A stretch of 64,000 bases of DNA from Nanobdellota archaeon. GTDB lineage: Archaea; Nanobdellota; Nanobdellia; Parvarchaeales; Parvarchaeaceae. The stretch covers positions 8,150 through 72,149 of the forward strand of contig JAKAAW010000001.1 in assembly GCA_021802105.1 (NCBI GenBank), written 5' to 3'. This document shows positions 2,861-43,084 of the stretch, one piece after another. The notes under the pieces are model-generated. The model did no database searches. It saw only the letters and a list, made by a program, of their open reading frames with translations, and was not told the origin of the DNA. Position 1 is the first letter of the stretch, and every line of letters starts with the position of its first letter. The position numbers were made by a program, and so were the translations under genes.

Positions 2861-2903
2861 GGCACTATCTAAAAAACTTTATAATTGCATGGAGATTTAT
2901 CAA

Positions 2904-3190
2904 TGTGAGCAGAAAACCCACACTCTTTAAAGGCAGGATAAAAGTGGACTGAAAGAATGGAAAACATAAATAGCAGGAGGGCAAAGTAACAATATGCTGA
3001 CGGCATACAAATTCAGGCTGTATCCAAACAAAGAGCAAATAGAGACATCCTCCAACTACTTCGGCTGCAGCAGATTCTTTGGATACCTAAAGTACAAGGT
3101 AGTAAAGCAGGGGCCATACACCCCCGGGAAGCTTAAGCTTTCGATATGAACTGGGATCTCATGGATGAATACATAGGAGGATGTCACGAT
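2904..3190 (+). mobile_element. degenerate IS200/IS605-family element remnant (MITE-like), copy A, homologous to copy B at 25509-25848
   Basis: It contains a 52-codon ORF (2994-3152) beginning MLTAYKFRLYPNKEQIE..., which is the hallmark N-terminus of IS605 OrfB/TnpB. It is ~80% identical at the DNA level to copy B over the first ~160 bp and over the last ~60 bp, with an internal deletion relative to B. A subterminal palindrome, agcttaagct, lies at 3128-3142. Confidence 0.55.
2994..3152 (+). pseudogene. tnpB: tnpB (IS605 OrfB) 5' fragment, truncated after ~50 codons
   Basis: It translates to MLTAYKFRLYPNKEQIETSSNYFGCSRFFGYLKYKVVKQGPYTPGKLKLSI*. The N-terminal 26 residues are almost identical to the copy-B ORF at 25598. 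The RuvC and zinc-finger regions are absent. Confidence 0.55.
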
Positions 3191-4557
3191 CACTTATGAG
3201 AGCGTTTGGGTTTAGAAAGACCCCCAAAAAGTCTGATAAGGACACATCCTTTGAAGATTTACAAAAGAAAACCGAAGAGCTGCAAGCTCGAAAATATGAA
3301 GCGGAGATAAAAGAAATACAGAGAGAGAGTCGGAATCGGACGCAAATATTCGATTTTGAAACTTTAAGAAGGAATACAAAACGCCGCGCCGCAGTAATAT
3401 TTATCGTACTTCTCGTTATATCACCTGTAATAGTTTTCTTCTTTTTATCATCGACATCGCATCAGGGACCGTTCGCTTACAATCTTGAAGCTTATTACAC
3501 CAGCGTTTTCGCCCCAGTGAGCTCTCTTATATCCCCTCTTTTTGGCATTGTAACAAGCCAGCTAGCCTGTATAGGCAACCCAGTAGTGTGCGTAGGGCAG
3601 CAGACTACGAATATAACGGTCGTTGTATACCCTACTTTCACGTCTTTTGTAACGGTTACACCTGCTTCAAGCATACAGACTGTTTTCCTCACTGGAAATG
3701 ACACGCCGGCTAACCTGTTTTATACGGTATCAAATAACGCAAACGTTCCACTAGGAGCATCTACGAACAACGCCTTATTCCTCAACGAATCATGCGGTAG
3801 CACTGACAATCCTGCTGAGGCACATATCTGTGTCGTGACGACATCACCAAAAGTGATCCTAAGCAACGCCTCTTTTTCTAGTGTTTTGCTGTCCAAACAG
3901 ACCCTAACAAATGAAACAAAGATGTCAGTATCCTGTCCATCGAAAAGTTCTAACATAGCACTGCCGACATTATCCTCGTTGATACTAAATTTCACAATAA
4001 AGAATTACAGCGCTGGTTCCATACTACCTGTGCAATTCGTCAGCCAGCAGTTCAGTCAGCAGCTTCTCGCTTCGTCACAACCGCTCGAGCCTAACTTACC
4101 ATCAGTCTCGTTTGTCAGTCCGGGTCCTCTACAGATAGTAATGAGTGTAGTAGAGCCCATGCCCATAATAACTGGCACTGGAAACATCCCTATCACCATA
4201 ACCGTTAAAAACAATGGTGTAGGGGCAAACGCTTACAAAGTGAACTCGTTGTCTATATTCTTACCAAAGAGCATGTGGCCTACCAGCCCTCAAGGTAGCG
4301 GGTGGAAATGTGTATCATCCACCAGTTCGATAAAGATGCAGTTCGCCATACCTGGAAGTTCTTACTGGGTCTGCACTAACACGGAAAGTACACAACAACT
4401 CCAGTCAGCAGGAACCCAGTTTGTTCTGCCTCAGATAACTTCTCTGAGTTCACTCCACTTCAACACAGTGCCGATATTTGCTTACATGAATTACAATTAC
4501 TATGAATATATGAACATGCCTTACAAGATAAGTGCATCTGGTTCGGTGTGTGGTTAG
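3181..4557 (+). CDS. bitopic membrane protein with a cytoplasmic charged/coiled N-terminus and a large S/T/N-rich extracellular domain
   Basis: A ~70-aa K/E/R-rich N-terminus is followed by one TM segment (AAVIFIVLLVISPVIVFFFL). The extracytoplasmic region is long, with many N-x-S/T sequons. The start codon lies inside the terminal 'ggaggATGtcacgat' of the IS remnant. Confidence 0.5.
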   Translation: MSRSLMRAFGFRKTPKKSDKDTSFEDLQKKTEELQARKYEAEIKEIQRESRNRTQIFDFETLRRNTKRRAAVIFIVLLVISPVIVFFFLSSTSHQGPFAYNLEAYYTSVFAPVSSLISPLFGIVTSQLACIGNPVVCVGQQTTNITVVVYPTFTSFVTVTPASSIQTVFLTGNDTPANLFYTVSNNANVPLGASTNNALFLNESCGSTDNPAEAHICVVTTSPKVILSNASFSSVLLSKQTLTNETKMSVSCPSKSSNIALPTLSSLILNFTIKNYSAGSILPVQFVSQQFSQQLLASSQPLEPNLPSVSFVSPGPLQIVMSVVEPMPIITGTGNIPITITVKNNGVGANAYKVNSLSIFLPKSMWPTSPQGSGWKCVSSTSSIKMQFAIPGSSYWVCTNTESTQQLQSAGTQFVLPQITSLSSLHFNTVPIFAYMNYNYYEYMNMPYKISASGSVCG

Positions 4558-7124: not shown

Positions 7125-7967
7125 ATGATATCATATTTAGTATCGCTTATATCTATATTCGCAATCGCAACAATGTCTCTTGCCGCTTATTTCGATATAA
7201 GAACGCGGGAAGTGCCTGATTTTATCAGCTACCTAATGGTAGCAGGAGGGTTGTCTATTAACTTAGCTATTTCAATTACTTCAGGATCGATACTAAACTT
7301 AGAATTTCTTCCTTTAGCTATTCTACTTCTTTTTGGATTCTCATACCTTATGTATAGGTCAGGCCAATGGGGAGGAGGGGACGTTAAGTTAATGTTAGGT
7401 CTGTCCATGATTTTTACCGCAGGGGACCTTTTTTCACACTTCTCATTTATAGCTCTTTTCATAAACATGCTTATCTTTGGGGGGCTCTATGGAATAGTTG
7501 GAACCGTCGTATACGGGCTCGCCAAAATTAAAAAACTTTATCGCTTTCTGAAGATTTATGATATTCTACTAGTTGGTGTTGGTGCAGCTGCCATAACACT
7601 TATAGTTCTGTATATCCCAGCCCCATTCAGCTTCCTTATAGCGTTCTCAGCGTTTCTTCTTGTATCTATGAGGTATATCTATATAGTGGCCCAGAACTTG
7701 ATGTTCATAGACACTAGCGTAAATAAGCTGACAGAGGGCGATTGGCTTGCAGATGATGTAAAGGACGGATCTGGGAAAATAATAGTAAAACGTAGGCAGA
7801 CAGGGCTTCTGTTGGAGGACATAAAGAAACTTAAAGATCATGGCGTGAAAACAGTCCTAATCAAGATAGGTCTACCTTTTGTGCCCGGTTTATTAGCAGG
7901 AGTGGTGATTACGGTTGTTATTGGAAATCCCCTACTCCATCTAGTAGTTTTAAACACAGGACTATAA
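7125..7967 (+). CDS. type IV prepilin/preflagellin peptidase (A24 family, PibD/FlaK-like) with a C-terminal extension
   Basis: It is a polytopic membrane protein with a first catalytic Asp motif 'YFDIRTREVPD' in the N-terminal TM region and a second Asp in the 'QWGGGDVKLM' (GxGD) motif. Both are diagnostic of A24 aspartic prepilin peptidases. Confidence 0.75.
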   Translation: MISYLVSLISIFAIATMSLAAYFDIRTREVPDFISYLMVAGGLSINLAISITSGSILNLEFLPLAILLLFGFSYLMYRSGQWGGGDVKLMLGLSMIFTAGDLFSHFSFIALFINMLIFGGLYGIVGTVVYGLAKIKKLYRFLKIYDILLVGVGAAAITLIVLYIPAPFSFLIAFSAFLLVSMRYIYIVAQNLMFIDTSVNKLTEGDWLADDVKDGSGKIIVKRRQTGLLLEDIKKLKDHGVKTVLIKIGLPFVPGLLAGVVITVVIGNPLLHLVVLNTGL

Positions 7968-9042: not shown

Positions 9043-9062
9043 GTGACTGTACAATTGCAAAA
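9043..9062 (+). repeat. 5' strand of the 23S rRNA processing stem (tgtgactgtacaattgcaaa), perfectly complementary to 11918-11937
   Basis: A 20-nt perfect inverted repeat flanks the 23S gene, as expected for the archaeal pre-rRNA processing helix. Confidence 0.7.
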
Positions 9063-11917
9063 CACCAAACTATTAGATGGATGACTTGGTTCAGGTGCCG
9101 ATGAAGGACGCAGCAAGTTGCGATAAGGGCACGGGAGGCGCAGACGACCGTTGATCGTGCTGTTTTTGAATGCGTGATGCCTGCATGTAAATGCAGATTC
9201 CTTCATACGAAGGAAAGGGAACGCAGGGAACTAAAACATTTTAGTACCTGCAGGAAAAGAAATCAATCGAGATTCCCCCAGTAATGGCGAACGAAAAGGG
9301 AATAGGGCAAACCGAATCCGCAGCAATGCGGAAATGTGGTGCGAATCATGGCCGTATAGAAGGAGGCGAAGTCGACTGGAATGTCGCGTCATAGAGAGTG
9401 ACAACCTCGTAGTCTTCGGAAATGCGGTCATCGTATAGAGTAGCAGAGGTCGATACTCTTCTGTGAATACGGGTGTCAAAAACATCCAACCCTAAATACA
9501 ACCTGAAACCGATAGAGTATAGTAGCGTGAGCGAAAGTTGAAAAGCACTCTTGATGAGAGGGCGAAAAGAACCTGAAATCTAATAGTTATAGTTGTTGCG
9601 GCGCGTTGTGATTGCGTCAATAAATAAGCGTAATCAAGTGTTGCAACATCCTTTTAGCATAAAGGGGCAGGGAGTTTACGAGTACGGCAAGGCTAACGAA
9701 AGGGAGCCGAAGCGAAAGCGAGCACGCAAGTGCCGGTAGGAAACTGCCGTGAGTCGTATTTGTAAGACCCGAAGCCGTGCGATCTATACATGTGCAGGGT
9801 GAAGTGAGGATTACTCTTCATGGAGGCCCGAAAAGGTCGGGAACTATCTCGTCTTTTGACATGTGTATAGGGGCGAAAAACCAATCGTGCACGGCAATAG
9901 CTGGTTCCCATCGAAATATCCCATAGGATAGCTTTTGTCTCGTTGTGTTGAGGGTAAAGATACTGATCGTACAGATAGGGACCGAAAGGTCCCACTGCAC
10001 TGTCAAACTCAGAATATCAACATGGCAAGGGGCAAAAGTTGGGTGTATGGCGTAAAGTTTTACACCGAGAAGGAAAAAACCTAGCCGTGAGTTAAGGCCC
10101 TTAAATGTTGACTAAGTGCAAAAAAAGGAAATCATATCTAAAACAGTTGGGAGGTAGGCTCAGAAGCGGCCATCCTTTAAAAAGTGTGTTACAACTTACC
10201 AACCTAGGTATGACGACCTAAAAATGGACGGGGCTAAGTCAACTGCCGAAACTCACGATTGTCGTAAGACAATGGTAGATGGGCGTGCCTATGGACTAGA
10301 AGTCTGTTCGTAAGGGCAGATGGATCTGTAAGGCATTGAGAATCCTGCCAGGTGTAGCAAAGAAATAGGTGAGAATCCTATCCACCGCATGTGCAAGGGT
10401 TCCTTGTTTTAAGCTTATCTAACAAGGGTTAGTCGGTCCTAAGTGTCGTTTCGAAAGGAACGCCGCAAATGGGAACGCGTTTAATATTACGCGACCACAT
10501 GCGTTTTATCACGTACCACGCGTTGAGATATGCGGAGTGGTCCCGTCGGATCATCCACGGATACGTCGTGTTCGAGAGACGTAATGTCGAGAAGACATGG
10601 AAGTGTCTGTGATGCAGCGATGCATTCGCAGATTCCCAGCGCTAATAAAAACGTACGTGTCATGAACGCAGGTGACCGTACCGAAAACCGACACAGGTGC
10701 ACTGGCTGAGAAGGCTAAGGTGAGGGATTTAAACCGGGTAAGGGAAATCGGCAAATCAGTCCTGTAAGTTCGCAATAAAGGATCCCTGATCTGGTCTTAA
10801 AAGCGAGATCAGGGCGCAGTGACTAGGGGAGTCTAACTGTTTACTAAAAGCATAGCTGACTGCGAGAGAGCAATCTTTAGTACAGTCGGCGACATCTGCC
10901 CAGCACAGGTATCCGAAAGTTCGTTCCAACGGATATAAGGACCTGTTAGCGGCGGAGGTAACTGTGACCTTCTTAAGCAAGCATAATCCATTGCCAATTG
11001 ATTGTTGGCTTGTGAACGATGTAATGAGATTCCCACTGTCCCTACCTGGAAACCCGCGAAACCACCGTCCTGGTGCAAAGGCCAGGGACCTCCACAGGGT
11101 CAAAAAGACCCCAGGAACTTTACTGCAATCTCTTGTTGTAGTATTAAGATGATGGACATAGAGTAAGTAGGAGACGTTATTTCCAACGTTCCGGCGTTGG
11201 GATAGTCGAAAGTGTAACACTACTTCCATTGTCTTATACTGCTTACCTTCGGGGACAGCATGAGACGGGCAGTTTTGCTGGGGTGGCAATCCCACGAAAA
11301 GATAACATGGGAGCCCAAAGGTCATCTTAGGCGGTATAGAAATCCGCTGTTAAGTGCAATGGCAAAAGATGGCTTGACTGTGCGCTGCAATGCAAGGCGC
11401 GCAGAGGCGAAAGCCGGGCATAGCGAACACGAATGTGTGTGTTTTTGACTCCTTCGTATGACAGAAAAGCTACCCTGGGCGTAAGAGAGTTGTTGCGGAC
11501 GATAGTTCATATTGACTTCGCAGCTTGCTCCACAGTCTTTGGCTCTCCCCATCCTGGTTGTGCACAAGCAGCCAAGGGTATAGGTGTTCACTAGTTAAAG
11601 GGGACCGTGAGCTGAGTTTAGGCCGCCGCGAGGCAGGCCGGTAGTTAACTTGTGGAGGTGTTTTGATGCCTGAATGGAAGATTCGACTAGTACGAAAGGA
11701 ACAGCGAGTCGGCGCCTCTAGTTAGCGGTTATCCGACAGGGTAAGCCGCGTAGCCACGCGCTAAGGGCTAAGAGCTGAAAGCATCTAAGCTCGAAACCCC
11801 CCGTAAAAAGAGGCATCGTTGAGGTCGGGGAAAAAGACCCCGTTGATAGAATCGCCGTGTAAGAGCCGAGGCGAAAGCCGAGGTTTTCAGCGGACGATTA
11901 CTAATAAACCAAAATTC
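9063..11917 (+). rRNA. rrl: 23S ribosomal RNA (large subunit), not linked to a 16S or 5S gene in this window
   Basis: The 5' region 'GGATGACTTGG..CCGATGAAGGACG..GCGATAAGG' and 'GTACCTGCAGGAAAAGAAATCAATCGAGATTCCCCCAGTAATGGCGAACGAA' are homologous to the E. coli 23S 5' domain. The 3' region carries 'GCTGAAAGCATCTAAGCTCGAAAC' and 'GTTGATAGAATCGCCGTGTAAGAGC'. The length is ~2.85 kb, and boundaries are approximate (within about 15 nt). Confidence 0.9.
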
Positions 11918-11937
11918 TTTGCAATTGTACAGTCACA
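11918..11937 (+). repeat. 3' strand of the 23S rRNA processing stem (tttgcaattgtacagtcaca)
   Basis: It is the reverse complement of 9043-9062. Confidence 0.7.
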
Positions 11938-23054: not shown

Positions 23055-25493
23055 GTGCGTTCTACCTCTATGAGATTTTATGCAGCACCCTTGCTCATAA
23101 TTATATTAGTACTGTCTGTAGGCGCATCCCACGGCGCGCAGATATCACTAAACATTCATGAGATACCCTTTTCCGGTGTTTCGTGCACTGACCTTTCACC
23201 GTCACAGATCCAAAATGCGTACGGTTTTAACTCTCTATACAATATGGGCATCAATGGAAATGGCCAAAACGTAGCAATAGTTGTTGCTCAGGGCGATCCA
23301 ACTTTGTCCAGCGACTTGGCGGCTTTTGACTCACAATATGGTCTACCATCCCTCGTGAACGGGTCTAATCTTATACTATCTTACCCTTTCGGAGATCCAT
23401 CTTTTAATTCAAAGAACTGGACTGTCGAGACAGCCTTAGACGTTGAAGTTGTTCATTCTCTTGCGCCGCGTGCAAATATATATTTGGTAATAGCGCCAAA
23501 CGACAGCTGGCTGTTCAATGCGGTTAACTATACTATACAAAATTTGCCAGTACAAGTTATCTCACTTAGCTGGGGTGCCTCTGAGCAGTATTATTCCGCT
23601 TCTCAGGTAAACCAGATTAATAATATACTCTCTGCTGCACAAGAGAGGCACATAAGCATATTTGCGGCAAGTGGAGACAGTGGCGCGTACAATGGGTTAT
23701 CTACTTTAAATGTGAATTTCCCAGCATCCAGTCAGTATGTCATTGGGGTTGGAGGAACATCTCTATCTGCTACCTCTTCAGGCTCTTACCTAAGCGAAAC
23801 CGCTTGGAGTGGAAGCGGTGGTGGCTACAGTGCGTTCTTTCCAAAACCAGCACCTCAGCCGAATATAAGTTCTTACAGAATGGTACCTGATGTGTCTTTT
23901 AACGCAGGTACTCCCATATGTGCTTATATAAGTTCTGCTTGGGGAGGGTATTATGGTACTAGCGTAGCCGCCCCATCATGGGCAGCCATCAGTGCTCTTG
24001 TAGATCAGAGAGGAGGCGGCAGCGGAGTGGTGTCACTGAAAAGTCTTTATAGCGCGTTCTATTCCGAAGGAGGCATTGCGTATAATCTGATAAGCAGCGG
24101 CAACAACGGCTATTACTCTGCGAACGGCGGATACAGTCTGGTAACCGGGATAGGTAGTCCTAAAGTATATGCTCTAGCGCAGATACTAACAAAGGCATCA
24201 TACAAAATATCCTTTTCTGCGCTGGGTGCTGGCGCAGTTTTCGATATAAACGGAATAAACTACTCTGCACCATTTTCTCTAAATTTCAGTTACGGCCAGA
24301 AGGTATCCATGGGTGTATATGCACCATCCCATAATATGAGTAAGCGCTACGCTTTCGTTTCATACAGAGGTTTTTACAACTCAACGAATAGGACCGCAGA
24401 GTTTTATGTTGATAGCTCTGGAAACGTGACAGCTAATTTCAAAACACAGTTCGCAATAAATGAGGTTAATATAGGTGGTAACGTTAACACCACTGTATAT
24501 GCAGATAATGGAACATACTTTACCGCTTCCAGCCAGCTAAACTACATCCTATCAGGGAAAAGCTTTTCCCTTGTCGGGATAAAAATAGGTGAAAATAGCT
24601 TGGTGTACAATTCGTCTCTCCGCTTCTTTGTCAGCTCGCCTACAAGGGTCAATTTTTTGTGGAGAATAGGCAGCGTGTCAAAATTCATAATATCTGGTGT
24701 ACCACAGGGTGCCAGAGCCACCGTAAACTATACTAATTACGTTCCGCTCTCCAACAGAACAAGTACATACACAGCACTGGTCGGAAACGGAGAATCTATA
24801 CCCGTTATAGTAGGATCGAAACTGAATTACAGTGGACAGATATACCTCTCTGGATATAGATATTTTCTCCAGCCATCCAGTATCTTATCTGCGCCGGGCA
24901 TACAACTGAGTTTTGTAAAAGAATTCAGATATGTACTAACTTTCGTGTCAGCGGATAATTCAACGCTTTCTCCCACGGAAATATCCGTACTAAGTGCGTC
25001 TGCAAATAGTACCTTTTCCAACGATACAATATGGGTCCCTATCAGTGAGAATTTTAAGGTAAGTTCCGTGGAGCTTAACAATAACGGCTTCAACGCTTTA
25101 AACCACAACATAACCCTGTCTCAATACAACTATAGCTCTCCGATAAAACTACCGGTGTCCGATGTTAGCGTTCTAGTCAAGTTATATTTAGGTATACCAG
25201 TTATAGGCGCAGCCGTAAAGTTCAGTTATGACAACCTGTCGATAGAGAACTCTACAAGCAATCTTGGATCGGCACAGTTCAGCGATGTACCGAATTCTGG
25301 GTACAGTATAACAATAATGGCGTATGGGAGCAACTATACATTCTCAAATGTTTATGGTAAGAACCCGTCGTTCCAGATAAATCCTTTTATGTACCAATTA
25401 TATGTCGCGATAGCAGCGATAAGTCTTGTAATACTAATCTTTTCCGTGTGGGAAGAGCTTATGCACAGGAAAAAGAAGAGAAGCGCACAATAG
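23055..25493 (+). CDS. sedolisin-type (S53 family) serine-carboxyl peptidase, secreted, with a long C-terminal extension and a C-terminal membrane anchor
   Basis: It has a signal peptide (LLIIILVLSVGASHG) and a pro-region. Catalytic-domain motifs are 'SLSWGASE', 'FAASGDSGAY', 'GGTSLSAT' and 'YGTSVAAPSWAAISALV' (the S53 catalytic Ser in GTSxAAP). A ~450-aa S/N-rich extension follows, ending in a TM helix (LYVAIAAISLVILIFSVW) and a KKKR tail. Confidence 0.75.
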   Translation: MRSTSMRFYAAPLLIIILVLSVGASHGAQISLNIHEIPFSGVSCTDLSPSQIQNAYGFNSLYNMGINGNGQNVAIVVAQGDPTLSSDLAAFDSQYGLPSLVNGSNLILSYPFGDPSFNSKNWTVETALDVEVVHSLAPRANIYLVIAPNDSWLFNAVNYTIQNLPVQVISLSWGASEQYYSASQVNQINNILSAAQERHISIFAASGDSGAYNGLSTLNVNFPASSQYVIGVGGTSLSATSSGSYLSETAWSGSGGGYSAFFPKPAPQPNISSYRMVPDVSFNAGTPICAYISSAWGGYYGTSVAAPSWAAISALVDQRGGGSGVVSLKSLYSAFYSEGGIAYNLISSGNNGYYSANGGYSLVTGIGSPKVYALAQILTKASYKISFSALGAGAVFDINGINYSAPFSLNFSYGQKVSMGVYAPSHNMSKRYAFVSYRGFYNSTNRTAEFYVDSSGNVTANFKTQFAINEVNIGGNVNTTVYADNGTYFTASSQLNYILSGKSFSLVGIKIGENSLVYNSSLRFFVSSPTRVNFLWRIGSVSKFIISGVPQGARATVNYTNYVPLSNRTSTYTALVGNGESIPVIVGSKLNYSGQIYLSGYRYFLQPSSILSAPGIQLSFVKEFRYVLTFVSADNSTLSPTEISVLSASANSTFSNDTIWVPISENFKVSSVELNNNGFNALNHNITLSQYNYSSPIKLPVSDVSVLVKLYLGIPVIGAAVKFSYDNLSIENSTSNLGSAQFSDVPNSGYSITIMAYGSNYTFSNVYGKNPSFQINPFMYQLYVAIAAISLVILIFSVWEELMHRKKKRSAQ

Positions 25494-25508
25494 CTATTAT
25501 TTATAAAG

Positions 25509-25848
25509 TATGAGCGGAAAACTCACGATTTGAATCGTGGGATGAAAGCGGACTCAGAAATGGAAAACATAAATAGCGAAAGAGGTAGAATAACGATATG
25601 TTGACAGCATACAGGTTCAGATTGTATCCAAACAAAGAGCAAATAGAGACATTCTCCAAGTACTTCGGTTGCAGCAGAGTGGTATGGAACAAAGCCCTAG
25701 AGTTGAGAGAAAGCTATCACAAAGAGCATAAAAATGATAGGGTCTACGAGCCACGGTCTAGAGAAACAGGAACTATACGCCATGAGAAAGCTCAAGCTTT
25801 CAACAGGGGCTGGAATATCATGAATTCATTTGTGGGAGGATGTCACAA
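25509..25848 (+). mobile_element. degenerate IS200/IS605-family element remnant (MITE-like), copy B, with left and right subterminal hairpins
   Basis: It carries an LE-like hairpin ctcacgat-ttga-atcgtggg at 25522-25541. The tnpB 5' ORF (25598-25852) starts MLTAYRFRLYPNKEQIETFSKYFGCSRVVWNKALELRE, a typical TnpB N-terminus. A RE-like hairpin gaaagc-tcaa-gctttc lies at 25786-25801. The element ends 'gggaggatgtcacaat', the same terminus as copy A. Confidence 0.6.
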
Positions 25849-25852
25849 TTAA
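25598..25852 (+). pseudogene. tnpB: tnpB (IS605 OrfB) 5' fragment (84 codons), lacking the RuvC and zinc-finger regions
   Basis: The N-terminal motif MLTAYRFRLYPNKEQ is present. The ORF terminates after 84 aa, whereas intact TnpB is ~400 aa. Confidence 0.55.
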
Positions 25853-25888
25853 GGAGGTAAATCATTATATGGACAGACTCAGCATCTT

Positions 25889-28138
25889 ATGGAAGCAAAA
25901 AACAAAGATTATACAATAAATAGGGAAGAAGGTGAGATAGCACTCACTTACAAGGTACCACTGAGCGTCCTGTATCCAAACCCGGAGGACAACGAGAATA
26001 TATTCAGCAAAATAGTCAGTGCTATAATCGAATCTGGAAGCATAACATCCCTTATAATCATAAGCGACAGAAACTATGTTTACGTAAAAGATTCCGTTGA
26101 GCTTCTCAACGACCTAGCTGAACAATACAAGAACATCCTGCAATCGGACATATCAAAACCTTTCGACGCAGAGACTCAGCGCGCCCTTCCAGACGAAATG
26201 TCTATGTTCAATTATATTCTGTTCGATCGCCTGAAGATGGACCCAGTAGGCGCTTACGTTACAGGAGTCCGTGCCTTGAGAGAACTTAAGGTTAAAGCTA
26301 GAGCGTCTCCATCGTCGTCACTTGACCTCTTTGTGGAGAGGATGGACTCTCTAATGAGCCGCATAAGCGCTCTTAAGATTGTTCAGAAAAGCATGGCGTT
26401 TGTACTCGGTTACAAAATAGGAGACAGGACTCCATATAAGGCGCTCTTTAAGCCGCTTATACGACCTAATTTCACTTACACACGAATAATGTCTGAGCCA
26501 CCCATGTCCGCCATAGAAGTTGAGACGTACAAACTTAAGAATTCGGAAGGCACCGACGTTACCATATATAGGTTGCCAGGTATGTCACAATATCTCTATC
26601 ATATGTCCCCTCCAGAGCTGCTTTTGAATGTCGATGAATACAACATTCTTGACCAGGTAAGAACCGCTCTTATAGACTACAAACCGCAGGAGACGGAATT
26701 CACGGACCCTCTTAGGATGCGTGAGGTATTCTATAACATAGCAATAGACATGATAAGTGATATAAGCGAAAAAGAAGGTTATAGGCTTGCGTTCAGGGAC
26801 ATAGAGAAGTTAGCCAGCATATTAGTGAGACTGACCGTCGGATTTGGAATGACGGAGGTTATCCTTTCTGATGACAGGGTAGAGGACGTGTATATAAACG
26901 CTCCGATAAGTAAATCACCACTGTTTGTAAAACACGCAACGTATGGTGAATGCTCGACAAATATAATACCTAATGCAAAAGAAGTAGATGCTTGGGCCTC
27001 CAGGTTTAGGTTACTGTCTGGGAGACCTCTCGATGAGGGTCACCCTGTACTTGATACAGAGTTGATAACACAAAAGATACGTTCAAGGGTCGCAATAACT
27101 CAGCGTCCGCTGTCACCGAATGGTCTAAGCATAGCTTTCAGGCGGCACAGGGAAGCCCCATGGACTCTGCCGCTGTTCGTAAATAATAAGATGATATCGC
27201 CTATTGCAGCAGGTCTCCTATGGTTCTGTGTTGAAGGGGCACGTTCAGTTTTAATCAATGGTACAAGAGGCGCCGGTAAGACGTCACTTCTTACAGCACT
27301 TATGCTTATGATGATGAAGAAATACAGGATAATAACTGTAGAGGATACTCTTGAGATACCGACGGATGTGTTCAACGACATAGGTTATGATATTCTATCC
27401 ATGAAAGTACAGAGTGCGATAGTCGGCGAGAAAGCAGAGATGTCTGCAGAAGAAGGGATAAGGACGACCCTAAGGTTAGGTGACAGTGCGCTTATAGTCG
27501 GAGAGGTTAGAAGCACAGAAGCCAGGGCTCTTTATGAAGCCATGAGAGTTGGCGCGCTTTCCAATGTGGTTATGGGTACAATACATGGAGAGAGCCCTTA
27601 CGGAGTATTTGACAGAGTAGTCAATGATCTCGGTGTTCCGAAGACAAGTTTTAAGGCCACTGACCTCATAGTCTCAGTTAATAAAATAAAGAGCGTGGAC
27701 AGATTGACTGAGAGAAGAAGAGTGCTTGCAATAACAGAAGTAAGAAAGGACTGGTCGGACGACCCCAAGTATGAAAACGGGTTCGTCGATCTAGTCAAGT
27801 ACGATATAGAGAATGATATGCTAGTCCCTACAAATGATCTTCTTGAGGGCAACAGTTACATAGTCAAGGAAATCGCTTCAAAAGTAGAGGGATGGGCTGG
27901 TGATTGGGACGCAGTACTTGATAACATACAGGCAAGGGGGGAAATTTTAAAGATGATATCTGACTATGCAGATAAGACTGGTGATAGAGATATCTTGGAA
28001 GCCAAAGCCTCGACGGAAGCAGTCGATCAATATTATGAAATAGTAAACAAACTAAATGAAGAATTGGGGAGACCGCCGGACGGCAAAAGAATAGTGAGGG
28101 CGTTTGAATTATGGATAAAGGGAAGAAAACAAAGGTAA
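25889..28138 (+). CDS. type II/IV secretion-system ATPase of the FlaI/ArlI-PilB-VirB11 superfamily with an extended (~450-aa) N-terminal region
   Basis: It has a Walker A 'GTRGAGKTSLLTAL' followed by the 'ITVEDTLEI' Asp box, a 'LIVGEVRSTEA' Walker B / His-box region and 'GTIHGESP'. Its 749-aa length is ~200 aa longer than canonical FlaI. Confidence 0.8.
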   Translation: MEAKNKDYTINREEGEIALTYKVPLSVLYPNPEDNENIFSKIVSAIIESGSITSLIIISDRNYVYVKDSVELLNDLAEQYKNILQSDISKPFDAETQRALPDEMSMFNYILFDRLKMDPVGAYVTGVRALRELKVKARASPSSSLDLFVERMDSLMSRISALKIVQKSMAFVLGYKIGDRTPYKALFKPLIRPNFTYTRIMSEPPMSAIEVETYKLKNSEGTDVTIYRLPGMSQYLYHMSPPELLLNVDEYNILDQVRTALIDYKPQETEFTDPLRMREVFYNIAIDMISDISEKEGYRLAFRDIEKLASILVRLTVGFGMTEVILSDDRVEDVYINAPISKSPLFVKHATYGECSTNIIPNAKEVDAWASRFRLLSGRPLDEGHPVLDTELITQKIRSRVAITQRPLSPNGLSIAFRRHREAPWTLPLFVNNKMISPIAAGLLWFCVEGARSVLINGTRGAGKTSLLTALMLMMMKKYRIITVEDTLEIPTDVFNDIGYDILSMKVQSAIVGEKAEMSAEEGIRTTLRLGDSALIVGEVRSTEARALYEAMRVGALSNVVMGTIHGESPYGVFDRVVNDLGVPKTSFKATDLIVSVNKIKSVDRLTERRRVLAITEVRKDWSDDPKYENGFVDLVKYDIENDMLVPTNDLLEGNSYIVKEIASKVEGWAGDWDAVLDNIQARGEILKMISDYADKTGDRDILEAKASTEAVDQYYEIVNKLNEELGRPPDGKRIVRAFELWIKGRKQR

Positions 28139-30222
28139 CTCCCTTAAAGGATAGCGACATTGTAGACAACTACCTGTCATCAGGGATCGTGCCGTCTGAT
28201 CTTTATAATAAGGATCAGTCCGTGAGAGAAGAGCTTAGGTCAGTTGAATACAAAGTCTTCAAGAGGGAGAACCCCTCTTTCCTATCGAAAATTATAATTT
28301 TTGGTGCGTCAACTGTAGGAAAAGTCATCCAGTTCAGGATAAATGAAAAAGAGGAAAAGAAACTTAATACTACTCTCTACCTACTCGGCTACGATTTTGA
28401 TGCAAAGCAACTCTACGGCTTCTCTCTTTTTGTTCTAGTTCTTGGAATAGTATTAAGTATAGCCCTTTTTGCGATTTCGCAGGTATTAGTAGGACTTTTC
28501 TTTATGGCATTTGGAGTAGGAGGTTATTTCTTAGTGCAAAATTACCCAAAACAACAGCTCTCTATAAGGCTAAGCAAATCGTCTAGCGATCTCGTTACTT
28601 TTATCCTCTATCTAGTGATATTCATGCGACAGACGCCAAACCTGGAAGCAGCTGTCCAGTTTGCATCTGAAAACTTAACTAGCTATCTCGCTTTCGATCT
28701 CAAGAAACTAATGTGGGACACTGCCGCAAGAAAATACGTAAACATAAAGGAGGCACTTGACGATTTTTCAAAAAGATGGATGAAAACAAGTCCTGCATTC
28801 ACAGATGCGCTTTTCCTTGTGGAGAGTTCAACCTCTCAGGAAGATGAGGCCGGCAGACTCGCACTTCTAGACGAGGCCTCACAGAGGATATTGAGCGGAA
28901 CGTTTGAAGCAATGACGGATTATGCGTCTACTTTAAAGGAGCCCCTAAACACAGTGTATATGTTGGGTATGGTTCTGCCTGTTTTAGGTCTGGTCCTGGC
29001 TCCGATGATGATGGCGTTCGTAGCTATACCAGATTTTGGTGTTCTTCTAGCAGTAATGTATGATATAGCTCTGCCTTTATTAGTGTATTTCTTGCTTAGG
29101 GGAAGACTTTTGGTCAGACCTGCAGGGTTTGCAGCGCCGGATTTGAATGAGGTGCCTGGGCTGCCAAAAATTGGCAGCTTCTTTGTCAAGATAGGATCAA
29201 AAAAGATAAAGGTAAATGCCATGCTTCCCGCGATAGGAGTGTTTGCAATTTTTGCAGTTGTAGTAGCGTTTTTGTTCCCGTACATGCTCGTATTTGGGCC
29301 GACTCAGATATACGTTTCTGTTCTTGTAACAGCCGGCATAGGTTTTGCCCTTTTCACCTACTTCAAACTTTCAATAATACAGTTAAAATCCACGGAGGAC
29401 GAATTGATAAGAACACAGAATTCCTTCGGTGATTCACTGTTCCAGATGGGGTCTCTGCTTGCTCAAGGTTTTCCCCCTGAAACTACTATAGTAAAGGTTA
29501 GTGAGACCATGAAAAATACCCCGATGGCGGATTTCTTCAACATCACTGTCAACAATGTCCAAAATTTAGGCATGTCTATAAAGGAAGCATTTTTCAATAA
29601 AGTAAACGGATCAACCAGGTTCTTTCCATCATCAATGATAATTGCTGGCATACGAATATTCATAGAAGCATCAAGGAAAAGTGTAGCCAATGCCTCTGCT
29701 GCAACACTTTATGTCTCAAAGCATCTCGCGAACCTGCGCAGGATAAATCAGGAGGTAAAGAACCTTTTAGAGGAAGTTACTTCTGGTATGCGTGTTGAAG
29801 TCGGATTGCTGAGCCCGGTCATGGCAGGTATAGTAGTGGGATTGACGACACTAATTGGGGTGGTCTTAAGATCTCTCGCTGGGAGCATCAATAATATACA
29901 ATCGAGCGTCTCTACATCCAGCGGTGCCGGTGGAGTTGGTTCTGTAGTACCCTTCGCGTTTAGCCTATTTAATCTGAGCGGAGGGCAGATACCACTCTAC
30001 ACTTTTCAGATAATAATAGGTCTATACCTGATAAGTCTAAGTGTAATAATAGGTTACGCAATAGCTACCATTTCCCAACCTGGAGATAGGATAGTTATGA
30101 GAGACACAATCGCATCAGTCCTGCTCACATCGATGGCACTTTATATAATTATAACATTCATAGTCACGCTTGTGTTCTCTTCAGTAGGCGGACTCGTACT
30201 CGGCGCGACGCACTTAGCGTAA
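28111..30222 (+). CDS. FlaJ/ArlJ-TadC-like polytopic membrane platform protein (type IV pilus/archaellum assembly)
   Basis: It is a 703-aa integral membrane protein that immediately follows, and overlaps by 28 nt, the secretion ATPase, which is the canonical FlaI-FlaJ pairing. It has multiple TM helices with large cytoplasmic loops. The assignment is by context and topology and was not checked against the family profile. Confidence 0.55.
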   Translation: MDKGKKTKVTPLKDSDIVDNYLSSGIVPSDLYNKDQSVREELRSVEYKVFKRENPSFLSKIIIFGASTVGKVIQFRINEKEEKKLNTTLYLLGYDFDAKQLYGFSLFVLVLGIVLSIALFAISQVLVGLFFMAFGVGGYFLVQNYPKQQLSIRLSKSSSDLVTFILYLVIFMRQTPNLEAAVQFASENLTSYLAFDLKKLMWDTAARKYVNIKEALDDFSKRWMKTSPAFTDALFLVESSTSQEDEAGRLALLDEASQRILSGTFEAMTDYASTLKEPLNTVYMLGMVLPVLGLVLAPMMMAFVAIPDFGVLLAVMYDIALPLLVYFLLRGRLLVRPAGFAAPDLNEVPGLPKIGSFFVKIGSKKIKVNAMLPAIGVFAIFAVVVAFLFPYMLVFGPTQIYVSVLVTAGIGFALFTYFKLSIIQLKSTEDELIRTQNSFGDSLFQMGSLLAQGFPPETTIVKVSETMKNTPMADFFNITVNNVQNLGMSIKEAFFNKVNGSTRFFPSSMIIAGIRIFIEASRKSVANASAATLYVSKHLANLRRINQEVKNLLEEVTSGMRVEVGLLSPVMAGIVVGLTTLIGVVLRSLAGSINNIQSSVSTSSGAGGVGSVVPFAFSLFNLSGGQIPLYTFQIIIGLYLISLSVIIGYAIATISQPGDRIVMRDTIASVLLTSMALYIIITFIVTLVFSSVGGLVLGATHLA

Positions 30223-38923: not shown

Positions 38924-41900
38924 ATGCCAAAGTACAGCTTGACCATAAATAAAAAATCGCAATCAGCCCTAGAATACCTTTTGACATACGGTTGGGCCAT
39001 AACGATAATCGTGCTAGTTATGGCCGCCATATATTATATGGGAATACTTAACATACCTCCTTCAGGTCCTGCAATAAGCGGTTTTTCAGGTATAGAAGTC
39101 ACCGCAGTTCAGGCAAACACATCCGTTTTTGAGTTTAGCATAAAGAACAACTTGGGTATAACCGCAAATCTGTCCACATTATCGGTTTCTTTCGATGGAA
39201 ATATGTACAAATTATGGCAATGCACGGCTACAATCCTCGACCCCGGTGAAAGTGCGATATGTGCGATATTAGGAAACTTTTCAGCATCACGGATATCCGC
39301 ACAGGTATCAATGGCGTATTCTGTGTCTAATATTTTAGGAGGGGTCTCCAATGGAACCATCTCAATAACACCGCAGGTACAGTTTATCTCCAGCCCATTC
39401 TCCCCATATTCTGTAAGGATAGCGGTATACAATAATCAGTCATCAGCTACCCCAACTCCGTTTCAGCAGGCGATAAAGTTTAATCCCACTCTTTTTTCCG
39501 GTTATGAACTATCTAATCTAGGAAACATAAGGCTCTATTACAACGGGCAGGAGCTATACAGCTGGTGCGAATATGGCTGTTCAAACAACGCGAACAGTTC
39601 GCTTATATGGGTAAAACTTACGAACTCCATCGCCGCAAATTCGACTATTAATCTTACGATGACATTCGAGCCACTAACCAACTATAATTCTGTGTATTCT
39701 GGTGAAGCCCCGCAGCTCTCTCCCGTGTACGGAGAATATGACAATGGAGCTAATGTATTCAATTTTTATGATAATTTTAAAGGGACTACTCTTGATACAA
39801 GCAAATGGTCCGGAGGTTCATGCCAGGTAATTTCAAATGGGTTATTAATCCCATCAAGTTGTAGTACACAACTAAATTCAAATACTGAATTTTCTAATCC
39901 TCTAATTTTAGAGGCAGACATGAATTTCGTAGATGTGTTTAATAATGTAGGTGGGATAGACGGAATTGGGATTTTTAATGCATCAAACGGTGCAGGTACT
40001 TATTATATTGGATGGTATAGGTACTCCGGAGGATTTTTCAGCGGTGGTGAATGGAACCCATCACAAAGCTGGCCGCAGTTCCCAGTCTCTCCTTTAACTA
40101 ATCATTTTTACGTTTGGAGTATATATTGGCAACCGTCATATTCATCCGTAATGTATTTAAACTATACAGATAGCGTTTCTCCCACAACTTACCCAGGCGA
40201 TTATCCTATAAAAATTGGAATTAACGCTCAAGGGGCGGCCGAATATCTAATGAATTGGATTCGTGTGCGTTCCTATCCCCCAAATGGAAAAATGCCTTCC
40301 ACATCAATAAGCTCTATAGGAAACCAGCCAATATATACGAGAGCCATAACGTTCTACAACGGACAGAATATAGCTACTTCAAATCCCTTCCAGCAGATGT
40401 TTACAACGGATTCCGCAGTCTATTCTGCTTATGAAGCGCCAAACCTTGATAACATACAGTTCGTTTATCAGAATGGATCAATAATACCATCATGGTTGGA
40501 GTCAGGAAACAGCAGTAAATCAACAGAGACAACATACTGGCTGAAAATAGGGAGCATTCCTGCTGACGCCGGAGTGACCATCTATGAAGTGTTCTACTCT
40601 ATAGCGGATAACGTTTTCAACAACATCAACACTGGGGAGGCTCCTCAATTTTCTCCGGTGTTTGGGGAATACAATAATATAGCAAATGTCATGGATCAAG
40701 GTTTGGCATATCAGGTGTATTACGACAGTGGTGGAACATGCGACTCGACGAATTACCAGACACAGCTTTACAATTCTTCTTTGGGCAACGGCACAACAGT
40801 ACTAGGATGCGCTTCGTTTGTCTCTAATACGGCACCATTTTCAGCAATCTCTCCCGGGACGTCTCAAAACGTCGATGGAACCACGGAACCGAACGTAGTT
40901 ATAAATTATCAATCTGGGTACAGTGGCGGTGCTCCTTATCCAAATCCACCCATTGCAAACACTGCGAACTCATGGTTGGTTAAGGCGATAGGGTGGGTGA
41001 ACATCGCTTCGTCCTCTACATCGACATTTAGTGAGATAGCAGATGACGGCATCACCCTAAGCTACTCTAAGAACGGTGGAAGTAGCAGCGGCATAAATTG
41101 GCTCGGTGGCTCATCGAGCCCCAATAATTTGATATCCCAATGGCATACGACCGGCGCGGCAGCATATACAAGTAGCAGCATTTCTGCGGGGACTTATAGG
41201 ATCGAATTGGATTATTTTGAAGATGGGGGAGGCTCGTATACTGGACTTTGGTCAAGCGCTTCAGTGGATTACTATCATGCCGCTTATCCTCCCGATGGAG
41301 TCATGCCTACTGTCATAGCAGGAACAAACATCCCTCTACATACGCAACCGATAACGTTCTACAACGGACAGAATATAGCTACTTCAAATCCCTTCCAGCA
41401 GATGTTTACAACGGATTCCGCAGTCTATTCTGCTTATGAAGCGCCAAACCTTGATAACATACAGTTCGTTTATCAGAATGGATCAATAATACCATCATGG
41501 TTGGAGTCCGGTGCAAGTAACGCCGCTACTTCAACGATATACTGGCTGAAGATTGGAAGCATTCCTGCGAACGGCAAACTAACGATATATGAGGTATTTT
41601 ATCCTACTTCTATAAACATGTTCAATACCATAAATACAGGTGAGGCCCCGCAATTATCTCCGATATATGCGGAATACGACGATGGAGCAAACGTATTCAA
41701 CAATTATTGGAATTTTGCAGGGACAACCTTACCAAACGGATGGACATCAAGTATAGGTTCAAGTAGTGGTTCAGTTACAGTAAATAACGGAGTAACACTT
41801 GCTTCTGGAACGGGAGGTAATAACGGTTGGGGAACAATTAATTACCCTTTTACAATGCCAGCATCAGATCAAACGATTGTAGAAGTATATGGTAAAACAG

Positions 41901-43084
41901 CAAGCACAGGCAGGCAGAGGATGTATCTGACAGATACAGCTACTTCTATTTTTGGAGGATATTATTCTGATTTAGGATTTGATTATGGTATTTATGGAAG
42001 TTCTGAAATAACTAGTGGAGACCTGCAGTATTATTGGAATGGATATAATTCTCCTTCTAATTCTGCTTTTGCAATAAATATCCCTTATATTATACAATAC
42101 ATTTTATCAGGTTCTACTTTTTATTGGAATATTTTAAATCAAACCGAATCAACAGTAGCATCACAATCTACAACGCAACCTTCTTCAACAACTGTCTTGT
42201 CCTTGATAGATGATGACGATAGTGGAGTAACTCAATCAACATACTATTGGATTCGTATGCGTGCCTATCCTCCAAATGGACTTATGCCAGGTACAACAAT
42301 AACAGTATTCACGGAATCCGGTCTTCCAAGCGGATACAAATGGAATGTCACATATAACAGCGTGCTGCAGAGCTCTACAACGTCATCGATTACATTCTTA
42401 AATACCCAAGGCACGTATTCTTACACCGTCCCCACGCTTTCCAACTCTAGTGCAGGTTGCACAACAACATACACTCCTTCATCTTCATCAGGAACATTGC
42501 TAGCAGGCTCAACACAGTCCATATCATTCAGCGGCTCCACCACATGTACTACAGTATTCACGGAATCCGGTCTTCCAAGCGGATACAAATGGAATGTCAC
42601 ATATAACAGCGTGCTGAAGAGCTCCACTTCCAGCACCATAACCTACTCTACTACATATACAGGAACGCAGCCGAGTTACTCTTACACCGTCCCCACGCTT
42701 TCCAACTCTAGTGCAGGTTGCACAACAACATACACTCCTTCGTCTTCACCTTCTAGCCCTGTTGCTGTTGGGTCTTTAGTATCTGTTACTTTTACCCCCC
42801 TGACAACGTGTACTACGACATTCACAGAATCTGGTTTACCAGGAGGGTACACCTGGTCAGTCGACTATGGCGGCACAACGTATTCCGCATCTAGTGGATC
42901 CCAAATACAATTCACGACGGCGCCTGGTACTTATTCATTTTCAGTAAGTCCAGTTGACGAGTCACCACTTACATCATGTGCAGCTACAATAGTAGAGTAT
43001 TATGTTTATTCTCCTTCCCCTTCTTCGGGGTCATTAGTAGCAGGTTCGCCGCAATCAATAACCTATTCATTGGTTTGTCCGTGA
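38924..43084 (+). CDS. giant (1386 aa) secreted protein with a class III (prepilin-like) signal peptide, three tandem ~330-aa modules and three C-terminal ~85-aa repeats; putative pilus-tip or adhesin-like surface protein
   Basis: The N-terminus 'MPKYSLTINKKSQSALEYLLTYGWAITIIVLVMAAIYYMG' resembles the archaeal class III signal motif (Q-S-x-x-E-Y-L-L). Modules repeat '...FYNGQNIATSNPFQQ...NL.NIQFVYQNG..IPSWLESG...YWLK.GSIPA...YEVFY...INTGEAPQ.SP.YGEYD.GANVFN'. The C-terminal repeats read 'TVFTESGLPSGYKWNVTYNSVL.SST'. It is heavily sequon-rich. Confidence 0.7.
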   Translation: MPKYSLTINKKSQSALEYLLTYGWAITIIVLVMAAIYYMGILNIPPSGPAISGFSGIEVTAVQANTSVFEFSIKNNLGITANLSTLSVSFDGNMYKLWQCTATILDPGESAICAILGNFSASRISAQVSMAYSVSNILGGVSNGTISITPQVQFISSPFSPYSVRIAVYNNQSSATPTPFQQAIKFNPTLFSGYELSNLGNIRLYYNGQELYSWCEYGCSNNANSSLIWVKLTNSIAANSTINLTMTFEPLTNYNSVYSGEAPQLSPVYGEYDNGANVFNFYDNFKGTTLDTSKWSGGSCQVISNGLLIPSSCSTQLNSNTEFSNPLILEADMNFVDVFNNVGGIDGIGIFNASNGAGTYYIGWYRYSGGFFSGGEWNPSQSWPQFPVSPLTNHFYVWSIYWQPSYSSVMYLNYTDSVSPTTYPGDYPIKIGINAQGAAEYLMNWIRVRSYPPNGKMPSTSISSIGNQPIYTRAITFYNGQNIATSNPFQQMFTTDSAVYSAYEAPNLDNIQFVYQNGSIIPSWLESGNSSKSTETTYWLKIGSIPADAGVTIYEVFYSIADNVFNNINTGEAPQFSPVFGEYNNIANVMDQGLAYQVYYDSGGTCDSTNYQTQLYNSSLGNGTTVLGCASFVSNTAPFSAISPGTSQNVDGTTEPNVVINYQSGYSGGAPYPNPPIANTANSWLVKAIGWVNIASSSTSTFSEIADDGITLSYSKNGGSSSGINWLGGSSSPNNLISQWHTTGAAAYTSSSISAGTYRIELDYFEDGGGSYTGLWSSASVDYYHAAYPPDGVMPTVIAGTNIPLHTQPITFYNGQNIATSNPFQQMFTTDSAVYSAYEAPNLDNIQFVYQNGSIIPSWLESGASNAATSTIYWLKIGSIPANGKLTIYEVFYPTSINMFNTINTGEAPQLSPIYAEYDDGANVFNNYWNFAGTTLPNGWTSSIGSSSGSVTVNNGVTLASGTGGNNGWGTINYPFTMPASDQTIVEVYGKTASTGRQRMYLTDTATSIFGGYYSDLGFDYGIYGSSEITSGDLQYYWNGYNSPSNSAFAINIPYIIQYILSGSTFYWNILNQTESTVASQSTTQPSSTTVLSLIDDDDSGVTQSTYYWIRMRAYPPNGLMPGTTITVFTESGLPSGYKWNVTYNSVLQSSTTSSITFLNTQGTYSYTVPTLSNSSAGCTTTYTPSSSSGTLLAGSTQSISFSGSTTCTTVFTESGLPSGYKWNVTYNSVLKSSTSSTITYSTTYTGTQPSYSYTVPTLSNSSAGCTTTYTPSSSPSSPVAVGSLVSVTFTPLTTCTTTFTESGLPGGYTWSVDYGGTTYSASSGSQIQFTTAPGTYSFSVSPVDESPLTSCAATIVEYYVYSPSPSSGSLVAGSPQSITYSLVCP

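Follow-up and report, generated by a model that had tools for sequence, protein, structure and literature searches.

Solo-tnpB elements form the IS1341 group of the IS200/IS605 family of insertion sequences (IS). The closest described members, the solo-tnpB elements of S. islandicus and ISGst2, combine the TnpB domains with subterminal hairpins and a right end that overlaps the 3′ end of tnpB, and they insert 3′ of the pentanucleotide TTTAT without duplicating it. TTTAT is the published transposon-associated motif (TAM) of the S. islandicus elements (PMC10640517) and also the TAM of ISGst2 (TnpB2) (Meers et al. preprint). In TnpB elements, the omega-RNA scaffold is encoded at the right end (PMC10640517). 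Here we analyzed a window of 64,000 nt from a Nanobdellota archaeon (GCA_021802105.1, contig JAKAAW010000001.1, positions 8,150 to 72,149 of the forward strand), in which an earlier note had described two IS605-derived remnants, called copies A and B below. Both are independently decayed, immobile relics of a solo-tnpB element, and thereby further members of the known IS1341 group with a TTTAT target; the family to which they belong shares the TnpB domains, the subterminal hairpins, the overlapping right end and the insertion 3′ of TTTAT without duplication. Unlike the full elements of that group, the two copies are internally deleted, retain only the part of tnpB that codes for the helix-turn-helix (HTH) domain, have decayed hairpins and reside in a DPANN host. 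Comparison with related genomes makes it reasonably probable that surviving insertions of the family as a rule lie in the sense orientation in promoter regions, and that its relics serve as promoter relays and leaders for the genes behind them.

Scanned against Rfam at gathering thresholds, the window gave an archaeal 23S rRNA gene and a tRNA-His gene and only these, with no RNA family at the relics. The closest homologs of the ATPase encoded behind copy B are labelled Candidatus Parvarchaeota, and on these sequence grounds the host is a DPANN archaeon. Related genomes and strains used for comparison are referred to by the numbers of their contigs or loci (L001–L140). The sample codes of the related metagenome-assembled genomes are of acid-mine-drainage style, and the parent family of the relics is common in Parvarchaeota-like DPANN archaea of acid mine drainage.

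The relics and their parent element

The left-end 18-mer of the element was scanned against the genome collection and gave 36 matches, 15 of which lie in DPANN genomes and were used for the census; the other 21 were bacterial chance matches and were excluded. The same 18-mer gave 62 matches in metagenome contigs, none of them to the element family (many are group-II-intron-like or chance). Three look-ups with full-length TnpB proteins, made to widen the census, returned mostly loci that were already known; the right flank of L134 and one sister family were new.

Two of the 15 DPANN matches are full-length elements of ~1410 nt, L033 with a 391-aa and L022 with a 439-aa TnpB. Full-length relatives with identical ends encode PF12323, PF01385 and PF07282 (HTH, RuvC and zinc ribbon), and it is through these relatives that the family is assigned to TnpB, since the window relics hold only PF12323 and a short internal fragment. 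All three domains are carried by ~35 protein clusters at ≥67% identity, and related genomes contain intact TnpB genes that have both the D-E-D and the zinc-finger motifs. From left to right, the target TTTAT is followed by the left end AAAGTGTGAGCGGGAAAA, the left-end hairpin (CCCACG..CGTGGG), a 19-mer, ~20 nt and the ATG of tnpB. The 3′ end of tnpB overlaps the structured right end, after which come the right-end hairpin (CCCATGAAT..ATTCATGGG), with compensatory changes in its stem, and the terminus AGGATGTCAC. The terminus GGAGGATGTCAC, or a variant of it that differs by 1–2 bases and retains its ATG, closes most intact right ends of the family.

There are no terminal inverted repeats, and imperfect subterminal hairpins are found at both ends, as is typical of the IS1341 group. 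Their distances to the element ends, ~17–18 nt on the left and 10 nt on the right, match the IS608 paradigm. As in IS608 and ISDra2, the left end directly follows the target penta- or tetranucleotide, which is not duplicated. Unlike in these elements the target is TTTAT instead of TTAC or TTGAT, and no gene for the Y1 HUH transposase TnpA, by which solo-tnpB elements are mobilized in trans, was seen beside any of the related copies examined. TTTAT or TTAT forms the left flank of nearly all copies of the family, and occupied and empty sites (ATTATTTAT^AATT and GGTTTAT^ACTG, where ^ marks the insertion point) place the insertion 3′ of TTTAT with no target-site duplication. The last 230 nt of L033 give a folding z of −2.15, and two terminal stems are supported by covariation. 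A 374-nt derivative that retains the last ~230 nt of the element is found in L025 (3748–4121, minus strand); it has a motif, AAACATAAGG, resembling a transcription factor B recognition element and TATA box (BRE/TATA) ~225 nt before its right end, which could be an omega-RNA promoter.

The two copies in the window consist of the following features (ORF, open reading frame).

2896–2900, + strand: TTTAT target of copy A, identified by the left flank common to the family
2901–3187, + strand: copy A, a doubly deleted relic of 287 nt (blastn against L022 and L033, nhmmer end models, alignment with copy B)
2956–2974, + strand: 19-mer AATGGAAAACATAAATAGC of copy A, 19 nt before the ATG of the remnant ORF, identical in both copies
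2994–3149, + strand: 51-codon remnant ORF of copy A, TnpB residues 1–26 fused to an internal TnpB fragment (translation, tblastn)
3176–3187, + strand: right-end terminus GGAGGATGTCAC of copy A, including ATG 3181 (border set by the empty site of copy B)
25505–25846, + strand: copy B, a relic of 342 nt (empty-site comparison, blastn against L022 and L033)
25559–25577, + strand: the same 19-mer in copy B, 20 nt before the ATG of the remnant ORF
25598–25852, + strand: 84-codon remnant ORF of copy B (HTH_OrfB_IS605, PF12323, at 5.1e-20; frame comparison with the TnpB of L022)

The observation of the earlier note that two related IS605-family remnants lie in the same orientation (+), each directly 5′ of a co-oriented gene, is confirmed. 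For copy B an element is indeed present at the borders given there (25509–25849), but the empty ortholog sets its true limits at 25505–25846; likewise it does end just upstream of the ATPase gene, at a distance of 42 nt from ATG 25889 and not 40 nt. No further copies were found in the 64 kb by tblastn with a full-length relative or by nhmmer, for which the element ends were modelled separately as left-end and right-end profiles.

Copy A retains positions ~1–175 and ~984–1032 of the parent and roughly its final 60–75 nt, with both subterminal hairpins degenerate, and its tblastn matches cover TnpB residues 1–29 and 299–313. Copy B retains positions 1–236 and 1304–1409, with the left-end hairpin (25522–25541) intact and the right-end hairpin (~25816–25836) weakened. 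The N-terminal 45 aa of its ORF correspond to the HTH domain of TnpB, and the C-terminal part is out of the TnpB frame. The ORFs of 51 and 84 aa that look like HTH proteins are pseudogene fragments.

The copies have in common a block of 95 nt at 86% identity (the two regions align with a mean column identity of 76%), the terminus GGAGGATGTCAC and the 19-mer, which has two matches in the window against 0.04 expected. Their differing breakpoints mark them as independent relics rather than copies of one amplified miniature inverted-repeat transposable element (MITE). They resemble the MITE-like and palindrome-associated (PATE-like) derivatives of IS200/IS605 in being short, in keeping both ends and in lacking a functional transposase or TnpB; an amplified family of this kind was nevertheless rejected on the differing breakpoints, the 76% identity, the eroded hairpins and the presence of only two copies in the window. 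The view of A and B as a single portable module fails in the same way, given their different deletion structures, decayed hairpins and 76–86% likeness. A minimal hairpin form of 48 nt does exist in a relative (L038, 4361–4408). It is a single hairpin flanked by the first 18 nt of the left end and the final 10 nt of the right, reads TTAT followed by AAAGTGTGAGCGGGAAAGCCCATGGATCCATTCATGGGGGATGTCAC and lies 38 nt ahead of a co-oriented gene; it may be the smallest mobilizable form of the family.

Locus B occurs in three forms among strains whose ATPase proteins are 100% identical: a 513-nt form with the same right breakpoint, the 342-nt form, and a 100-nt form with the right end only (L006 and six similar contigs), joined to a different, divergent small membrane-protein gene. 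Thus, the erosion of copy B is ongoing. Of the few single-nucleotide polymorphisms (SNPs) among these strains (L001–L006), several fall close together in the right-end hairpin, on its 5′ arm (CCC/CTC/ATC at ~25816–25818).

The state of the right ends bears on whether they still have a function in RNA-guided processes. They could encode omega-RNAs with guides taken from the flank (~16–20 nt, including the 5′ ends of the downstream genes) for a TnpB acting in trans, with homing, retention or TldR-like repression as the outcome. The omega-RNA scaffold known from right ends, the covariation of the terminal stems and the intact TnpB genes in related genomes are all consistent with this, but we consider it very improbable for the window copies. 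Only ~106 nt of the 3′ end are left in B and 60–75 nt in A, and both lack the AAACATAAGG motif ~225 nt from the right end, a possible omega-RNA start in full copies. The right-end hairpins are degenerate, and that of copy B is polymorphic among strains. A tblastn search found no tnpB gene in the window beyond the two N-terminal remnants, which leaves it without a candidate for the nuclease-dead TnpB homolog that a TldR-like system encodes next to its guide RNA and target promoter. Finally, the guide match at the occupied locus is preceded by GTCAC and not by the TAM, and the locus itself is therefore no target.

Promoters and empty sites at the two loci

To describe host promoters we used a motif search limited to positions −46 to −16 of 22 window genes that are likely to be first in their units, and scored the resulting matrix with a cut-off of 5 bits. 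An earlier expectation-maximization search over −60 to −1 had settled on AT-rich sequence beside the ATG and was discarded. The motif AAGnTTTATAAA ends 19–30 nt before the ATG in 21 of the 22 genes, and about 22 nt before leaderless ATGs. From this spacing, most transcription units appear to be leaderless. Shine–Dalgarno (SD) sequences of GGAGG type are found ~8–9 nt upstream of a few window genes, several of which are apparently operon-internal. We infer that TTTAT is the core of the TATA box of this lineage (AAGnTTTATAAA). The 19-mer is probably the BRE/TATA of tnpB. It resembles a second promoter flavour (AAAAC-ATAA-type) that precedes the ATG of several leaderless genes by a comparable distance, and can be likened to GGAAAACATTAATAAGG in L052 and to AAAAACATAAGA before 45878.

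At locus A two further features are needed.

2874–2885, + strand: native BRE/TATA-like motif AAACTTTATAAT of gene A, upstream of copy A (promoter matrix)
3196–4557, + strand: gene A, encoding a 453-aa single-pass membrane protein with no assigned family (orthologs, promoter spacing, gene callers)

In the window, AAACTTTATAAT is followed by TGCATGGAGATTTAT, the element (2901–3187), GATCACTT and ATG 3196. Orthologs of gene A at 61–72% identity lack the element, and the equivalent empty sites were read in L052/L053 and L051. In L052, GGAAAACATTAATAAGG is followed by 22 nt and the ATG, and the unoccupied site GGTTTAT^ACTGTTGTATG (GGTTTAT^ACTGTTGT) lies 8 nt before the ATG. The AAACTTTATAAT box is the sole match of ≥5 bits in 2861–3200 (7.9 bits, top 0.09% of the window). 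With the element excised, its distance to ATG 3196 is 23 nt, in good agreement with the 21–23 nt in the element-free orthologs (L051, L052); the distance is now 310 nt. A direct repeat, D7 (2870–2900 and 7529–7559), had been considered as a common promoter. It lies in a membrane-protein ORF and was dismissed as chance.

According to the earlier note, the elements donate the start context of the downstream genes. For gene A the gene callers start at 3196, which yields the 453-aa product on record in 22 contigs read, and a protein look-up found no record of the 458-aa version that would start at 3181. This usage, together with the promoter-to-ATG spacing, identifies ATG 3196, 8 nt past the element, as the ancestral start. 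ATG 3181 is part of the right-end terminus of the family and is by chance in frame with gene A, as the terminus ATG also is in L029 and L032. Thus, a start codon or an SD given by the element finds no support: the right-end GGAGG lies 15 nt from ATG 3196, compared with ~8–9 nt at the SD-bearing genes of the window. The annotation of gene A should remain at 3196.

The features of locus B outside the relic are these.

25496–25507, + strand: junction TATA-like box, ATTATTTAT joined to AAA, composed of the host TTTAT (25500–25504) and the first three bases of the element (promoter matrix)
25851–25858, + strand: host-derived AAGGAGGT past the right end and outside the element (L043/L044 reads TTTAT^AATTGCGGAGGGATAAATC)
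25869–25919, + strand: 16-codon upstream ORF that overlaps the start of the ATPase gene (read from the sequence and compared with L043)
25889–28138, + strand: gene B, encoding a 749-aa T2SSE/FlaI/TadA-like ATPase (Pfam and NCBIfam matches)
28111–30222, + strand: gene following that of the ATPase, encoding a 703-aa T2SSF-like membrane protein (Pfam/NCBIfam, weak T2SSF match)

Where orthologs of the ATPase are found at 73–88% identity, the order of S8-peptidase, ATPase and platform genes is kept and the element is absent. The empty site of the 88% relative (L043/L044) reads ...GAGATTATTTAT^AATTGCGGAGGGATAAATCAATATAC...ATG, and the occupied site in the window reads ...GCTATTATTTAT, 25505–25846, AATTAAGGAGGTAAATCATTATATGG...ATG. 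The comparison with orthologous loci lacking the element, which the earlier note had proposed, thus yielded empty sites for both loci, with exact borders and no duplication. The ATPase aligns over its full length (100% of the query) with homologs of 745–749 aa, in support of the start at 25889.

These alignments show that copy B split a conserved ATATTTATAA box 42 nt before the ATG of the ATPase gene, with the AAA of the element rebuilding a TATA-like box. The empty ortholog reads ATTATTTAT^AATT at this site, L045 and L046 have kept a similar ATATTTATAA box, and the junction box is the sole match of ≥5 bits in 25494–25892 (7.1 bits). The second GGAGGT (25853–25858), which the earlier note had described as following copy B, is host flank, and the element-free L043/L044 has GGAGGG in its place. 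The 16-codon upstream ORF begins 10 nt after the GGAGGT of host AAGGAGGT; the 88% relative, which lacks the element, does not have this ATG. The ORF may have arisen to compensate for having to translate from a long leader, or by chance alone.

Both copies had been placed within surface-structure loci. This description fits locus B, with its T2SSE/FlaI-like ATPase and the weak T2SSF match, but not locus A, where neither gene A nor the other proteins have a Pfam or NCBIfam match.

Elsewhere in the window, the archaeal 23S rRNA gene (9053–11926) stands alone, with no 16S or 5S gene in the 64 kb, indicating an unlinked rRNA operon. An ORF of 1386 aa (38924–43084) looks like a repetitive surface protein, with large internal direct repeats spaced by 1005 nt at 40321–41694 and by ~250–260 nt at 42302–42748.

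Placement of related copies upstream of host genes

Of 15 independent loci with a readable right-end flank, 14 have the start of a co-oriented gene 0–71 nt past the right end (for L015 this value is uncertain, 37–125 nt), and at 12 the element is in sense and within 60 nt of the start. As a null we used the 58 intergenic TTTAT sites of the window, 67% of which face a co-oriented gene and 29% of which do so within 60 nt. Against this null, p is about 0.02 for the orientation and about 7e-5 for sense placement within 60 nt. All eight copies in tandem contexts are in sense (p about 0.02). The non-random placement suspected from the two window copies is therefore borne out across the family, and the positions of A and B reflect a general insertion habit with nothing pilus-specific in it. 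The suggestion that the loci are hot spots for insertion and decay came closer to the truth, except that the hot spot is any promoter-region TTTAT and not a pilus locus. In a limited literature search we found no earlier description of a family-wide sense orientation immediately 5′ of host genes.

The insertion points vary. They lie inside a TATA box in B, L022, L029a and L025b, 0–8 nt before the ATG in A, L032, L029b and L011/L039, and upstream of an intact promoter elsewhere. Exact targeting of the TATA box was rejected for this reason. At the gene for glutamyl-tRNA synthetase (GluRS) in L022/L135–L140, a full-length element splits the best TATA box, TAGCTTTAT^TTA, which lies 21 nt from the ATG when the site is empty; the 24 nt between element and ATG hold no promoter. 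At the gene for cysteinyl-tRNA synthetase (CysRS) in L007 (19–236), a relic without a right end is fused to the ATG (…TTGAGGAGTA ATG), with TTTAC and not TTTAT as its left flank.

The genes behind related copies also encode a HerA-like ATPase, PAC2, an FAD oxidoreductase, Trm5, RpoL and a winged HTH membrane protein. The earlier note had proposed that the element fragments are portable promoter, 5′-untranslated-region or small-RNA modules that donate SD and start and co-regulate surface-appendage genes. Both window copies are in sense and 5′ of genes, one of them heading a type-IV-pilus-like ATPase operon, and IS605 stem-loops have been linked to lipoprotein genes in Borrelia (PMC2775950), which counts in favor of such a role. 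We nonetheless give it hardly any credence. Related copies precede many housekeeping genes of varied function, and locus A has no recognizable pilus or secretion component, so that neither a link to surface-appendage genes nor their co-regulation is supported. In addition, gene A begins at its ancestral start codon beyond the element, the GGAGGT close to B belongs to the host, and the two copies, 76–86% alike, differ in internal structure.

Two loci from the widened census call for separate mention. L134 (3692–3900) has a TnpB and a left flank (leucyl-tRNA synthetase, LeuRS) identical to those of L125, but its right flank is the 3′ end of a diphthamide-synthase-like gene and its right end differs by 1 nt, which points either to a second copy and recombination among the copies, or to a chimera made by assembly across the repeat. 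L116 (629–3800) holds the sister TnpB family, with the right end ...GTAGTTCAC; it adjoins a DDE_Tnp_1 transposase gene, faces an ORF on the opposite strand and so departs from the sense-upstream pattern.

Probable transcription through the relics

How could sense insertion into promoter regions come to dominate? If TTTAT is the core of the TATA box, and with a coding density of ~92%, tolerated insertions would be concentrated in 5′ regions, and those that survive would pile up just upstream of gene starts. Insertions in sense could be tolerated there, and an antisense insertion would sever the gene from its promoter. There are no runs of ≥4 T in either relic region. With no oligo-T terminator, and with a putative BRE/TATA of its own for a leaderless tnpB, the element would let transcription exit from its right end into the host gene.

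Copy A parts gene A from its only good TATA box, and copy B splits the only good one upstream of the ATPase gene. We therefore find it plausible that transcription now reaches the downstream genes by way of the relics, probably starting at the host TATA box and/or the conserved tnpB promoter. The host TATA box would be intact at A and rebuilt at B, with the tnpB promoter as a further source. Gene A and the ATPase operon would then have the relics as 5′ leaders of ~200–360 nt and as promoter relays. In such a role the relics would donate no start codon and, in B, no SD, and they would not act as a dedicated regulator of surface structures. The best support for read-through is indirect and comes from the essential genes for GluRS and CysRS behind elements. 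The arrangement is comparable to the outward and hybrid promoters of bacterial IS and to the IS605 stem-loops of Borrelia, in which a gene is separated from its promoter by an element or receives a promoter from it. It differs from bacterial IS promoters in the proposed signal, which would be the archaeal BRE/TATA of a leaderless tnpB together with a TATA box rebuilt from TTTAT and AAA.

Several observations weigh against sense insertion with read-through. The 15 loci were reached via the left-end 18-mer, which biases the sample to copies keeping the left-end promoter, and the orientation test on these loci gives a p of only about 0.02. The right-end flank of L134 abuts the 3′ end of a gene on the opposite strand, and the sister family (68% TnpB identity, different ends) is found in a convergent context. 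In L025b, L029a and L033 an intact promoter lies downstream of the element, and read-through is thus not always needed. At locus B, S8 peptidase and ATPase genes are separated by 24–106 nt in relatives with conserved synteny, so the ATPase gene could be co-transcribed with the former, or it might use the weak box GGTAAATCATTATAT downstream of the right end. The 19-mer scores below 5 bits in the TATA matrix. Finally, a long leader on formerly leaderless genes poses a problem for translation, given the SD spacing of 15 nt for A and the lack of an SD near 25889 for B.

In a rival account, the copies are neutral, dead relics with no present role. Gene A and the ATPase gene would then be co-transcribed with upstream genes or expressed from weak promoters past the right ends, and the placement would reflect the availability of TTTAT and purifying selection against insertions in coding sequence. 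Both contexts are tandem, with co-oriented genes upstream (1649–2860 and the S8-peptidase gene, 23055–25493) and no oligo-T run in between, and the conserved S8-to-ATPase spacers, which can be as short as 24 nt, fit as well. Near-identical strains show continuing deletion and SNPs in the right-end hairpin, and 67% of the intergenic TTTAT sites face a co-oriented gene in any case. As a check for exaptation, the remnant was compared between L011 and L039 and is not clearly better conserved than the neighboring coding DNA. On the other hand, the strong TATA box of gene A, 23 nt from the ATG with the element excised and now 310 nt away, indicates that gene A was independently promoted as a leaderless-type gene. 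The closeness to gene starts is far above what availability predicts (p about 7e-5), and GluRS and CysRS are encoded behind elements with no room for promoters of their own. We regard neutral relics as possible but unlikely, and retain sense insertion into promoter regions, with relics as relays and leaders, as the reading we prefer.

A bolder form of this reading, which we put forward only tentatively, is that of a promoter-riding transposon. Such an element would target TTTAT, rebuild the TATA box with its AAAG and bring its own promoter without a terminator, and after decay its left end and promoter would become the obligatory promoter and leader of the gene. A sense insertion would make the host gene the distal cistron of a transcript with tnpB and the omega-RNA. 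The CysRS gene in L007, the GluRS gene in L022, gene A and the ATPase operon might be examples. One may further speculate that the sense bias is mechanistic, with the non-template strand of the open promoter complex offering single-stranded TTTAT to TnpA.

Taken together, the two relics give no evidence of a pilus regulon. What the occupied and empty sites do show is a TnpB element with a TTTAT TAM landing in archaeal promoter regions, with nearly all surviving copies pointing into the host gene. If read-through proves true, this would bear, as far as we can infer from 15 loci, on the ecology of TnpB and on the evolution of promoters in leaderless archaea. The ultra-small genomes of DPANN archaea would then show how essential genes have their promoters and leaders rewired by transposons with RNA-guided nucleases, and why relics of such transposons persist.

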